A stretch of 64,000 bases of DNA from the NCBI GenBank assembly GCA_951406725.2, contig OX597842.1, positions 20,894,001 through 20,958,000 on the forward strand, in the 5' to 3' direction. The stretch is from Octopus vulgaris (lineage: Eukaryota). Made by a program: the position numbers and the translations under genes. Under the pieces are notes generated by a model. It was not told the origin of the DNA, searched no databases, and saw only the letters and a program-made list of their open reading frames with translations. Each line of letters begins with the position of its first letter. Position 1 is the stretch's first letter. This document shows positions 15,933 to 42,219 of this stretch, in pieces.

Positions 15933-16004
15933 ACTTGAAATAAGTATGGAAGATTTGCAAACGATCCATTTTCAATTTTCACGATTGCATTATGGGATAG
16001 ATAT
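15933..16004 (-). CDS. 72-bp single-LRR exon C: YLSHNAIVKIENGSFANLPYLFQ(V)
   Basis: acttac at 15927-15932, acceptor tctttcAG at 16005-16006. 72 nt, LRR consensus. Confidence 0.92.
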
Positions 16005-18081
16005 CTGAAAGATAATTCATGAAGAAAAAACATAGAAGTGATTAGTCACATATTTCAAATATTATGTCCAATGAATTAGCTGCTGAAATAGAAGAAAAAT
16101 AAGTAGAAGTGAGACAATTTGGTGAAGACGATTATGAAAATGATAAGTGAAGATTATGAAGATAATGATGAAGATGTATGGCATTGTGTTTAGTGATGAT
16201 GAAAGCGATAATTATTATGATGAGGGAATTAATGATAACGGATTTGGTAGTGATGAAGTTGTTTCGGTCTGCTGGCATTGCTCTGTGGTTTCAGATTATG
16301 ACTGATAAGGATGATGATGATGGTGATGATGACGATGATCATGATGACGATGAAGGTGACGACCACTACGAGGACGCAGACGATGATTATGATGACAATA
16401 TTTACTGATGGTGCTCTTAATATTTGGAATGATGATGAGGAGGAGGATGACGCTGATATACAAAGTTGAAACTATAACAAAAGAGAAGGATGAGAATAGG
16501 AATAAAATTAACGACGAGCAGTTATTGATAAATGAGATAAAAAGGGTAAAGAAGACTAAACTAGAACTGGAGACATGTATCTATCTATCTATCTATCTGT
16601 CTATCTATCTACCTACATATCTATCTATCTATCACTTTATCAATATATCTATCAATCGCCAGACAGATACGTAAACACATACACACGTATACCAATATAA
16701 ATATATGTATATATTTGTGTGTGTGTATATATATATATGTGTGTGTGTGTGTGTGTGTGTGTGTATGTAACACGTTTATACATGTACTTTTTTCAGTAAT
16801 TTGACAATGGCCATGCTAGAGCCTTTATTCGAACCAATCGAGCCCAGCATTTATTTGTTGAAAGTCTAGCACTTATTCTCTCGGTGTCTTTTGCCAAACC
16901 ACTAAGTTACAGTGTGTGTAACACCAACATTGCTTATTAGGTGATCTTGAGGGAACACAAATATAAATCTGTCTATATTTGTGTGTCTATGCTTATGCTA
17001 GGACTACCACTAACCACTTTCCAACACCCAGACCACAAAACATCATCTACACACCCATACACAATCATTCGCACACCCACACACTATAGACGCACACAGC
17101 TACGCACGCATACATCCACACATCATAGTCATTAGCCCCTATCAACTCACACACACACACACACACACACACACTTACACATTCTTACATACACAACGCA
17201 CGAGTACTGTTGCTTTGGGATCTCCAGTTGTTTATTATCTCCCCGACTCTCTATCTCTCCCGTCAAGCTATGCTTTTCCTAACTAGTAGCCCTGCTTGAT
17301 CCCTAAATCGACAAGATTTTTAATCACTTTTTGTTCATGTTCTCCTTTCTCTTTCTGTTGAGGAGCATAGGCTCGAAAGTAAAAGAATTTCTCTTTTCCC
17401 GAGCGTTGAATCTAACACCTGTTTTCGACTTTTAGTTTCCCGTAAATTTAATCTACCGACACACAAACACACACAGACAACACACACACACACACACACA
17501 CACACACACACACATCTATATATTAAAAGGATGTGTGTTATAATACTATTCCACAACCATAGCAACAATCCAACATACCTGTATCATCAGCTACCCACGG
17601 TTACCATTATGGTTTCGAAACCTGGTCACTACCCTTCAATCCGGCGGTGTGAACAGCACTAAAATAAGTGTTGTTTGGGAACAAAGAAATCAAAGAAACC
17701 ACAAATTTCAACCACATTTACCCTATGTATAACCGTATCAATAAATAATTCAAATAAGTAAATTACAACTCCTAAATACGTAACTAAACAGCGTGAAATC
17801 TTTTAAATCATACAAAAATTATAATCTCTACCGTCTTCCGTAGATATGAAAGTAAAGCCTTAATGACCACAATAGGGCAATCAGTCGATATATAGGAGGA
17901 TAAGACACCAACTTCCACAGCATACCTCGAGACAGGTGTGATCGGACCGAAAGTTCTCATAGTGTGAGAGAGTCCGGAAGTGAATAGTATTAAATTTACG
18001 TCTAATATAGGATAAAACTTTCGAAAAATGTTATCAATGGCCAGCACGTTAAAAAAATGCCTTTAAAGGTTAAATTTACAA

Positions 18082-18656
18082 ACAACTTATAAACAAGGAC
18101 AAAAGAAAAATAATCCAATGCTAAATATGCCGAAATATTACTTAATCGTCAATAACCATATAATTTATCACTATAAGCTCGCGTCTCGAAAGCAAGCCGA
18201 TAGAATTTTCGAAAACAAATTTCGTAATTATCGGATCGATCCCCATTTCTGAGTTAATTCATTTAGAATTTTCTCTTCATTAGTGATAAGAGAATTCTCT
18301 AAGAGAATTTTCAGTCCGTTCACACGTGTCTCGGGGTATGATGCAGAATTTCTATTTTGGATATATTTGGGGTACTTAAGTGTGCTCATGACTTAGCGTT
18401 TACTTCTTCCATAGGTACAAGTAAGAATCTCATTTATTTTCTTATCGTATTTATCGCTGATGACGAGAAAATTCTAAATGAATTAACTCAGAAATGAGGA
18501 TCGATCCGATAATAACGAAATCCTTTTAGAAACTTCTATCAGCTTGCTTTCGAGACGCGTGCTTATAGTGATAAATTATATGGTTATTGATGATTAAGTC
18601 TATTTCGGCATATTTGGCATTGAATTCTTTTTCTTTTGCCCTTGTTTATAAGTTGT
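18082..18656. mobile_element. MITE / foldback element with ~200-bp imperfect inverted arms (copy with shortened left arm at ~37915-38435)
   Basis: acaacttataaacaag...gaattttctc on the left is the reverse complement of gagaaaattc...cttgtttataagttgt on the right. Confidence 0.8.
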
Positions 18657-39400: not shown

Positions 39401-42147
39401 TGAAACTACGCCGTTCTACAAATGGTGGAAAATTGTTGCGGTATTCGAGATGCTGGGTTAGATGTCGCCATGGCTTGAGGATCAGCCTTACGCAGTTTAA
39501 AATTAATTGCCATACATAGCAGTGAGTGCAATGGCAGGTGTATACAACAAAGGGAAGAAGAACGAGATGATTCTTAGCCCTGATAAAATATGGGGGTCAC
39601 GGCAATGTTTAGAAGGAACTCGAAAAAAATGTATTTGATAATAATTTGAGGCCCGTAATTAGGCTTAATGCCGAAGATTCCATATCAAAATCATCTAAGC
39701 ACAACAGGTTCCTGCTTGCACAGTACATCACAGACAGAATGAATAACAAATGCGTTTCCAATGAAATCCTAATTTTGTGTTAGTCAAATGCCAACTGTTG
39801 GCGCCTGCACTGAAGGAAGCCGGATTCGGTCCTGTTTCCAGAGGCTGGATCGCAGTAACCTACAACAAATTTTGCGTGTTGGAACCATTCAAATCAACTG
39901 GAACTAAGAAGACCTGGCGAACAGGCTATAAGCAGAGAGGTAGTATGGTGGAGAATACAGAACGGTTGAAGAGAGAGAGATAATACGATCAAACTCTCAT
40001 CGAAGCCTTAAAATTCCATTTAAAATGACGGTGAGGGTGGAGTGAGAGAGAAATCCACACCACCCAAGTAAATGTAGTGAAAAGTGGGGGAATACTAAAC
40101 TGCACCTGTAAGCTGAGTCATACCGAGGAAGATGGAGTACTTGTCGTCGTAGTCTTGACCTAACTTTCTTTACAACATCTGCCATAATGGCATGGACGAT
40201 CCTAAAATTACTTGAGTAGTTTATGACTGGGAGTCACATGAATTTCAGCTTCGTCAGTCAACAAAGTTGGCCTCAGAAGCAGGTATTACTCAGTCAGTAA
40301 CGGTCACTTATAATCCATCATCTAGAAGACAGTGGAAAACCTGGGGAAGGTGTTTAAATTTAATCGGAGTGACACATAATCTAATTGTGAAAGCAACAAG
40401 GATTCTGAAAGGCGACTATCTACAATGGACACGTGATGTCTCCCAGTAATTTTAAGACCTGGAGTTAAAAATAGAGCATCCACCATGGATCATTTGGCAG
40501 TTCTCCGTACATGACATTTCAATATCCTCGTTGAAGAGAAGTAAGCGATTTCCTGTGAAAAAGGCTGAGCAACGTAGTCCTAAGTGGAAAATACAATTTG
40601 AAGCACTTTATAAGCAGCCTCAGAGAAAGCTTGGTTCTCGGTGATTAGTTGTTGCGTTAGCGAGGCTTTCGGTACGAGGGCAATACATCACGGAATTGGA
40701 GTGCGGTGGAGGATTTCTTGGCTTCACAGGTATGTGATGAAAAACCTGATTTGGATGGAACCACAACACCTCACTGTGACAAGTGGCAAGAAAGGTTTAG
40801 GAAGTTACTGAAAAAGAAAGGTGTGTATGTCTTACTACTTTCATACTAATAGACAGTCTATGCTTTTCTTTTGGTTGTCATCTAACCTTATGGTTACTCT
40901 TATTTTACGAGAGTGGCAGAAGCTTACATACAAGAATGATGTGTGACTGCCGTTCTATAATATGGTAGTTTCTTGTAGGTAGGCCTTGATCTTTAGCTGC
41001 TATATTAAATCCGTCTATGTCTTATTCTAAGCCAGAAAACACTAACCATTGATGGGTAATGGCTTTATCCACATCGGTACCATTTGCTCTCTTTGGGTAT
41101 TTGCCATTGAGATGTTTTCTTTGTCATTTATCTGTAAGAATATCTAAGTCAAATTCTTTGCATGTACTTTCATTCACTTAGCTTTTTCTCTGCTTGCTTC
41201 TAGTACGTCTAATTCTGGGATTTGTTGTATTTGGAATTCACTGAGATATTCCTTTGCATATTTTGTTATTTTGTATGACACTTTCTTGTTTTCGTGCTTT
41301 GAGACAACTTTTAACATCCAGTCATGAGAGTTGTTTAGGTAAGTGTTTCGGTCAATCGTTAACTCCATTGTTAATTCCAATTGTAAATGTTACGGCCACC
41401 CTCTTTTCTTGGTAGGTAAAATCGTTCTACATCTGCTTAAGGGTGGTGCATTCTATGCATTGTCAACAATTTTCGTATTTTTCTGTTAAGATTACATATT
41501 TCAATAATTGATTAGTTAATGATATTGAAACTGTAAGTCACGCCTGGTATAGCAAAAGTACTGATCACTTCGATCCTGTTTCTTGCATTCAGCTCTGTCT
41601 TAAATATTGCTTTTACCCTGCGATAATAATCTATTCTGATCCTTTCCCTCATCACTGAATATTTGATCATGTCCACTTCAAATACCGATAAGTACATGTA
41701 TCTCTCCGCTGGTTCTAATTCCTTTATGACATTCTGCGGGATGTTCCTGTCGTTTTTCCTTTGATAAATGTAGCTTTTGCTCATTTATCGAGGTCAAATT
41801 GCAACGTGATATCATCAAAGAATTGTTTAGTATCTCCCGCCCAAGACGAAACATTAAAGGACTATATATTTATCCACATATTTCAGGCATAAATATACAT
41901 ATGACTATACACGCACTTTTCACAATATACCAAACAGTGATGTAGAACATAAAGACTTATGTAAACACACATCGTCACACATAAACACACTCAACTCACA
42001 CACACTCACATACATATATAGAGAGAGAGAGAGATAATGTGAGTTATGGAAGGGAAAAAGAAGGTTAAGAAAGAAAGATGGGAAGATATTAAATTTGAGG
42101 AAATATATACTCAGGAATATAGTATGAACAAGACTGGTTCAACTTAC

Positions 42148-42219
42148 AATCCACGTAAGTTTGGAAGATTTGCAAACGATCCATCTTCAATTTTCACGAT
42201 TGTATTATTGGATAGATCT
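42148..42219 (-). CDS. 72-bp single-LRR exon G: DLSNNTIVKIEDGSFANLPNLRG(L)
   Basis: acttac at 42142-42147, acceptor tctttcAG at 42220-42221. 72 nt. Confidence 0.93.

Follow-up and report, generated by a model that had tools for sequence, protein, structure and literature searches.

The locus and its gene

The window analysed here is a 64,000-nucleotide (nt) stretch of Octopus vulgaris DNA, C29:20894001-20958000 in a 2.8-Gb assembly. It contains the beginning of a minus-strand gene in which leucine-rich repeats (LRRs) are encoded by separate exons, below called cassettes. Six cassettes in the window are 72-nt exons with AG/GT ends. Each consists of one nucleotide, 23 codons and two nucleotides, in phase 2, and the split falls inside the second Leu of the LxxLxLxxN motif. 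Each cassette is one LRR and one symmetric phase-2 exon, and lies within a duplication unit of 1-7 kb.

We number the repeat from the first Leu of the motif, so that x2,x3 is the xx pair of LxxL. Cassettes A (2107..2178, DF at x2,x3) and B (8077..8148, KE) are of the AB type, and E (27061..27132, KK) is of the E type. The D type comprises C (15933..16004, FQ, with Val instead of Leu at the split codon), D (23236..23307, QY) and G (42148..42219, RG). Cassette F (28871..28951, minus strand, KA) has the 3' half of an H-type LRR exon and unrelated DNA as its 5' half; an AG located 81 nt before the donor leaves it with an open frame, though without the LxxN motif. By self-BLAST, A and B lie in two units of ~5.97 kb (1..9503, 91-97% identical), C and D in two units of ~7.3 kb (11253..24330, introns 92-95% identical), and a third copy of the latter surrounds G (38435-44085). 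The first coding exon, with signal peptide and LRRNT, is at 46327..46538 on the minus strand, has its ATG at 46518 and ends in VKH|L.

No cassette was found to the right of G as far as C29:21058000. Beyond the left edge of the window the array goes on with another 13 cassettes and with an LRR exon of 69 nt, and the gene as a whole has 20 cassettes (18 intact) across 92 kb. It continues through LRRCT, GAIN/GPS and seven-transmembrane (7TM) exons to about C29:20796500. The domain order is signal peptide, LRRNT, LRR array, LRRCT, Cys-rich module, SEA-like module, HormR-like module, GAIN/GPS and 7TM; from LRRCT to 7TM it is supported by open reading frames (ORFs) and tblastn. The SEA-like and HormR-like modules are named from pattern and model, with no database match over the cut-off. 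The SEA domain (PF01390) reached E=0.013, below the cut-off, in one of seven proteins, and the SEA-like module is modelled as beta-alpha-beta-beta-alpha-beta at a predicted local distance difference test (pLDDT) of 62-79. Among nine proteins scanned with Pfam no Ig family match was found; LRRCT is instead followed by the Cys-rich module, which ends in CCxxNLCN. Its cysteine pattern, together with SSF57302 (E=5.7e-6) in one supplement row, suggests that it may be a Ly6/uPAR three-finger domain.

GPS (PF01825) matches over the cut-off at C29:20807162, on the strand of the gene, in an ORF reading CSCNHL|TSFAILM, i.e. with the HL|T cleavage consensus. GPS matches are found downstream of each array, on the same strand. 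The secretin-family 7TM domain (PF00002) was detected in the public models P0001 and P0002 (E=1.5e-36 to 8e-37), whose TM exons map to the window's gene at 79-97%, and P0041, the public model of a neighbouring gene, has Pfam matches to 7tm_2 (E=2.8e-36) and GPS (E=8.4e-14). Matching proteins of O. vulgaris and O. sinensis carry the NCBI name 'adhesion G-protein coupled receptor G6-like'. By its predicted domains, the window's gene qualifies as an LRR-bearing adhesion G-protein-coupled receptor (GPCR). The LGR/GRL101 receptors, class A proteins with a Rhodopsin-type 7TM and without GPS, were ruled out by the presence of GPS and 7tm_2. Orthology to ADGRG6 by N-terminal domains was also rejected, as CUB and pentraxin domains are absent from the nine Pfam-scanned proteins, in which the N-terminus is LRRNT-LRR-LRRCT.

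Two segmental duplicates of the gene lie at 21.3 and 21.6-21.7 Mb, with introns mostly 93-95% identical. They have 13 (11 intact) and 9 (9 intact) cassettes. The LRRNT exon differs among the three genes at strand positions (KH vs SA; CTC vs RKW/REW), and in two of them two cap cysteines are lost. In P0041 the signal peptide is replaced by 75 residues of an upstream stretch, probably a mis-annotation, and a copy of that stretch is found around window position 50050 on the minus strand. A further family member is located directly downstream of the window's gene (C29:20755273 and 20739820, minus strand).

Variation among the cassettes

A preliminary description of this stretch, made from the sequence alone, had reported nine nucleotide differences between C and D and nine between D and G, with one silent change in each pair. 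These counts are correct; the silent change is in a Pro codon. The differences were said to be mostly in the last two full codons, which holds as a bare majority only, five out of nine in each pair. Among the three copies 13 of 72 nt are variable, including all six nt of the last two codons (p=1.1e-5, or 7e-4 after correction for 67 possible windows), and in the intron flanks 16/298 and 30/299 columns are variable (5-10%). The observation is confirmed as real and more than chance.

Other parts of that description apply to a narrower set. The middle stretch IVKIE.GSFANLP is almost invariant in C, D and G, but not in 17 D-type copies, in which x12 is V (9), E (6), G (1) or M (1) and x18 is W in four. 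The x2,x3 pairs are all different within the window but not among the 18 intact cassettes of the gene, where KK occurs four times and KE, KI and RG twice each. KA, listed as one of the cassettes, belongs to F with its replaced 5' half. KH proved to be no LRR cassette: an nhmmer search for one found nothing, and these residues close the signal-peptide/LRRNT exon.

Evidence for selection on cassette codons

Of 90 cassette matches, 82 lie in complete genes as intact exons bounded by AG and GT, and all cassettes seen are on the coding strand. The other eight (three F-type, one of 70 nt, one broken and three terminal-type) were dropped. The codon tests used 35 of the 38 intact cassettes at the three close loci, in the families D (17), E (12) and AB (6), and left out three H-type cassettes and 44 of distant loci. 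The selection signal is based on all three loci and not on the window's copy alone. In the LRR geometry x2, x3, x5, x7, x8 and x10 face the concave side. Positions x2, x3 and x5 had originally been chosen in the preliminary description from three D-type copies, and E and AB are therefore the more independent tests.

By parsimony, changes at x2,x3 occur at 11-15 times the intron rate in D, 3.4-3.6 times in E and 8-9 times in AB. For the six concave positions together the ratios are 5.8-7.5, 2.6-2.8 and 4.7-6.5, and for scaffold/core codons 0.4-1.0. The tree-free minimum number of changes at x2,x3 is 23 (D), 14 (E) and 14 (AB), against maxima of 11, 10 and 5 in intron windows of six nucleotides; none of these windows (0/255, 0/253 and 0/255) reaches the x2,x3 minimum. 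The 17 D copies have 14 distinct x2,x3 hexamers, with a mean pairwise distance of 0.66 at x2,x3 vs 0.07-0.10 in the flanks.

A codon model with a free synonymous rate, in which the class-level omega was fitted by grid search, gives a concave omega of 4.5 (D), 3.5 (E) and 21.5 (AB); with multi-nucleotide changes allowed at a fixed rate the values are 2.9, 2.5 and 5.3. The core omega is 0.06-0.28, and omega=1 is rejected in all six fits (p<=0.0074). None of the three families has a stop codon at x2,x3, against a neutral expectation of 4.4 (product of P(0) about 0.01). In 9/9 paralogues taken from databases, representing three Octopus species, entropy is higher at the concave positions than at the other x positions. 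Immediately before x2,x3 the L1 codon is almost invariant, as are intron positions +1 to +11 immediately after, which argues against a regional mutation hot spot.

The nonsynonymous excess proposed from the first copies is thus seen in 3/3 families tested by the codon model, and it persisted with more cassettes sampled. The scaffold codons are under purifying selection, and the codons at or beside the concave strand change amino acids faster than introns change, x2 and x3 above all, followed by x5, x7, x8 and x10.

Predicted structure

An AlphaFold2 model was obtained for residues 76-579 of P0041 from a 23-row alignment. The LRRs have pLDDT 82-98, and at intervals of 24 residues x3-L4-x5 form a strand; the variable positions are on or beside the beta-strand, as had been predicted. 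Residues 307-401 of this model have pLDDT <50, and a single-sequence model of P0039 is unusable (pLDDT 41.5). The best fold match is NGL-3 (Z 31.6, root-mean-square deviation 2.2 A, 297 aligned residues), with chondroadherin and LGR4 also among the best, and the nearest folds include the neuronal LRR adhesion proteins NGL-3, LRRTM2 and FLRT2. Hagfish VLRA, a variable lymphocyte receptor (VLR), matches with Z 25.6 and 3.9 A over 243 residues. For the Cys-rich module there was no fold match in lists dominated by LRR matches. The variability of VLRs is described as located around the core beta-sheet (PMC3900441).

The wider family

At more distant loci, 14 and 19 intact cassettes were counted in the DNA examined. 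The LRRCT exon gave 60 matches among 68 candidates in the genome, 42 of them on three contigs and 45 with a same-strand GPS within 130 kb; both the copy number and the number paired with GPS are lower bounds. A search with the Cys-rich/SEA region against 1.84 billion representatives gave 30 matches. Twenty of them were traced, to Octopus (17), Argonauta (1), Nucella lapillus (1) and an unnamed source (1), and three more are from Octopus. The Nucella and the unnamed protein have the same layout with few LRRs; the adhesion-GPCR architecture therefore predates octopods, and the growth in gene and repeat number is, on this sample, octopod.

Ritschard et al. 2019 described an octopus-expanded 'group 3' of adhesion GPCRs, with 21-22 sequences and LRRs in five (PMC6408891). 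Three members listed in the supplements of that paper, A0A0L8FLR8, A0A0L8GYR2 and A0A0L8HDZ7, cluster with P0054, P0061 and P0084. A 15-row octopus clade including group-3 members and the neighbours' models has 100/100 support in a tree of 17 rows, where the outgroup is only two rows, one of them long, and P0055 was left out since it has no GPS match.

Public models represent the cassettes incompletely: P0002 contains none of the nine cassettes of its gene and P0041 uses 8/11. For two O. sinensis paralogues RefSeq gives 13 and 6 isoforms, spaced in 24-residue steps. This hints at cassette skipping and might fit a Dscam-like combinatorial splicing, but two of the 13 hold hybrid units that suggest read mis-mapping. 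Among the paralogue models P0054, P0005, P0008 and P0006, some have a Death domain after the 7TM, and others have no GAIN-7TM and a repeated SEA-like module, possibly as secreted forms, truncated forms or mis-models.

Other elements around the gene

All three F cassettes retain the AG 81 nt ahead of the donor and the open frame despite their foreign 5' half, and another partial copy of the foreign DNA is at C29:20843034. Inside the array, a broken element at 32190-35582 (plus strand), which we take from its motifs to be a long interspersed nuclear element (LINE), has an endonuclease-like ORF of 286 aa and an open frame of 465 aa and raises the GC content to 0.5. A 238-nt inverted repeat at 25744-26550 is 95% complementary and largely microsatellite. 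Upstream of the gene, a 282-aa open frame at 47907-48752 (plus strand) has a GIY-YIG-like motif (FYIGAT...RISNH) and is possibly a remnant of a Penelope-type element. A CR1/L2-like reverse-transcriptase tail at 53954-54622 (minus strand) is repeated in tandem units of ~12.4 kb upstream of the gene and is common to both neighbours. A 76-bp tandem repeat at 60926-61835 (12 copies, 97%) also lies upstream of both paralogous genes and is much longer at the third locus. At 61966-62645 an interstitial repeat of telomere type, eight copies of TTAGGG, is framed by inverted arms of 223 nt (93%) in the manner of a miniature inverted-repeat transposable element. Outside the window, at C29:21005058-21006482 (minus strand), an ORF of 475 aa encodes C2H2 zinc fingers between head-to-head genes.

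Interpretation

Our preferred reading, to which we give a probability of roughly 0.7, is that the cassettes encode the repeats with which an LRR adhesion GPCR, of a family expanded in octopus, binds its ligand, and that diversifying selection acts on this ligand face. The selection on binding specificity proposed in the preliminary description is partly supported; which ligand is bound we can only infer. Unequal crossing-over would change the number of repeats, which differs (20, 13 and 9) among three loci with 93-95% identity elsewhere. Variants would be reshuffled by conversion or crossover between cassettes, and diversifying selection would retain new surfaces. A ligand on the LRR horseshoe would then signal via a GAIN-released tethered agonist; such signalling after GAIN cleavage is known from other adhesion GPCRs.

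A number of observations weigh against this reading. The window's copy itself looks damaged: compared with both paralogues, an additional base is present near 46395 in the first coding exon, with a stop four codons later (46383-46381), and one cassette is 70 nt long, with two separate one-base deletions compared with its sibling. The reading frame is kept in the exons behind the array, where a GAIN exon carries one deletion of 12 nt and one insertion of 3 nt. Since the extra base and one of the cassette deletions sit in short single-letter runs inside recent duplicates, an error in the assembly is about as likely as recent pseudogenisation. Searching for proteins that match the LRRNT exon in its shifted frame gave nothing, which is weak evidence, and there are only three close copies of this exon in the assembly, none as a second haplotype. 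The neutral reference, on which the intron trees also rest, consists of ~260 flanking intron columns. In pairwise NG86 comparisons of E-family concave codons the synonymous proportion (pS 0.33) exceeds the nonsynonymous one (pN 0.29). The non-concave x positions are also elevated, 2.3 times in D and 2.6 times in AB; in D this includes x12, x16, x20 and x24, and when all 82 cassettes are taken together x16 and x20 are on a level with x10 and x5. At a locus at 18.67 Mb x2,x3 is mostly QK or EE, with little variation. Differences at x2,x3 are found among the three damaged F cassettes too (6/18 nt in pairwise comparisons, vs 18/372 upstream), exon synonymous rates are 1.0-2.7 times the intron rate, so that introns may be homogenised and understate the age of the exons, and the cassettes look mosaic, so that conversion contributes. 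Finally, branch-level selection and no positively selected site are reported for group 3 (PMC6408891); we suggest that this blank site test is explained by the many LRR exons missing from public models.

Several of these points would fit an account without selection, in which old variants are pasted into a nearly neutral repeat array by conversion over short tracts and by multi-nucleotide mutation close to the donor, while introns are homogenised. The damaged cassette F_g2b has its downstream intron in common with H_g2, which is direct evidence of exchange between cassettes, and the F cassettes share some x2,x3 codons with H. The upstream and downstream intron distances of the D family are uncorrelated (Mantel r=-0.11), and nearest neighbours differ between the two flanks, although a star-like tree could also give this. 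Together with the elevated synonymous rates, a pN/pS of 0.76 between gene 1 and gene 3 over the non-LRR exons (39 and 14 changes, omitting one misaligned exon, TM3) goes in the same direction. Such an account is nevertheless quite unlikely given the near-invariant L1 codon and intron positions +1 to +11, the 14 hexamers that need at least 23 changes on any tree, an omega above 1 even when multi-hit changes are allowed, and the lack of stops. As the codon before and the intron bases after x2,x3 hardly vary, we attribute the pattern to diversifying selection acting together with conversion, a combination known from plant resistance genes, and not to mutation alone.

If the ligand face is selected, there is about an even chance that the ligands are fast-evolving microbial surface molecules at skin, sucker and gill epithelia. 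The published expression rows are from the five LRR-bearing members, none of them the window's gene. Group 3 is described as enriched in axial nerve cord, sucker and skin, and the supplement gives skin 0.71 and sucker 0.17 for the LRR-rich A0A0L8FLR8, axial nerve cord 0.25 (its peak) and salivary gland 0.18 for A0A0L8HDZ7, and broad expression for A0A0L8GYR2 and Omin000461 (PMC6408891). Less in favour of the microbial reading, the two O. bimaculoides members other than A0A0L8FLR8 are thus broadly expressed or highest in the axial nerve cord. In squid, E. scolopes cluster_8002, a putative member placed in group 3 in one table and in group 0 in another, has 0.84 in the light organ, 0.16 in the accessory nidamental gland, 0.001 in the brain and 0 in haemocytes (PMC6408891). 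Skin and sucker together with the two squid organs, and the zero in haemocytes, would favour microbe sensing at epithelia over blood cells.

The nerve-cord signals, including the peak of A0A0L8HDZ7, are what a neural or self-recognition code would lead one to expect, a role that Ritschard et al. proposed for group 3 (PMC6408891). The LRR faces would then act as tags of adhesive identity in the suckers or in the nervous system of the arms, complementing the protocadherins. The neuronal proteins among the nearest folds agree with this, but that likeness is common to all 24-residue LRRs, and the near-absence of the squid member from the brain, against its light organ and accessory nidamental gland values, does not. 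An omega well above 1 among copies that are 5-10% apart in introns would also suit a moving external target better than a conserved partner, and we regard the neural code as unlikely. Expression of the LRR-rich member in sucker and skin could alternatively point to chemotactile sensing of diverse environmental or prey-surface molecules. We consider this very improbable, because the squid organs are symbiotic and not sensory, and a concave sheet of 10-20 LRRs suits macromolecules and not small tastants; the idea merges with the microbial one if the cue is a surface biofilm.

The microbial reading can be extended to a repertoire-type recognition system of the octopus. In it, about 60 adhesion-GPCR genes whose arrays hold as many as 20 hypervariable single-LRR exons would, through germline conversion and varied splicing, display a multitude of different microbe-binding surfaces on skin, gill and sucker cells and couple directly to G proteins. 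This system would derive from a molluscan gene with few LRRs, whose squid member marks symbiotic organs. Taken as a whole the proposal is doubtful. The question bears on how cephalopods distinguish microbes without lymphocytes and on the role of the octopus adhesion-GPCR expansion, for which the locus supplies a named gene family and defined codons.

Comparison with known systems

Within the adhesion GPCRs, the GAIN-7TM part of a gastropod homologue has its best sequence matches among solved structures in ADGRG6/GPR126 (E=1e-92) and ADGRG2 (E=6e-92), and the SEA-like and HormR-like modules before GAIN may also be shared with these receptors. The N-terminus of ADGRG6 is CUB-pentraxin, whereas the octopus protein has the LRR array and the Cys-rich module. 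An LRR ectodomain on an adhesion GPCR is known from ADGRA2/3 (GPR124/125). Unlike these conserved receptors, the octopus gene has no detected Ig domain, many more LRRs, and belongs to a fast-evolving multigene family.

The family itself is already known as group 3: the three listed members are homologues, and LRR and Death domains occur as described in PMC6408891. Our analysis differs in three points: a single genome has at least 60 LRRCT copies, single-LRR exons form arrays of up to 20, and the site-class omega is above 1. What appears to be new is the hypervariable cassette array, of which we found no description on an adhesion GPCR in the open-access literature searched; the family is not mentioned in the accessible parts of PMC9068888 and PMC13428168.

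The VLRs of jawless fish share the 24-residue LRR solenoid, the LRRNT/LRRCT caps, the concave variability and a store of cassettes (PMC3900441, PMC13428168). They are assembled somatically from an incomplete germline gene, whereas the octopus cassettes are spliceable exons of a complete germline GPCR gene. The closest working analogue is the LRR-ROCO array of brown algae, for which one LRR per exon, repeat numbers that differ between recent duplicates and positive selection on concave-face residues are reported, along with interspersed non-coding cassettes and alternative splicing (PMC3341825, PMC11378527). In contrast to the cytoplasmic ROC-COR GTPase of the algae, the octopus gene encodes a putative 7TM surface receptor with GAIN-7TM and no ROC-COR; its cassettes are all on the coding strand, and there is no homology beyond the LRR. 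An arms-race signature on the ectodomain of an adhesion GPCR, convergent with VLRs and algal ROCOs, would be unexpected.

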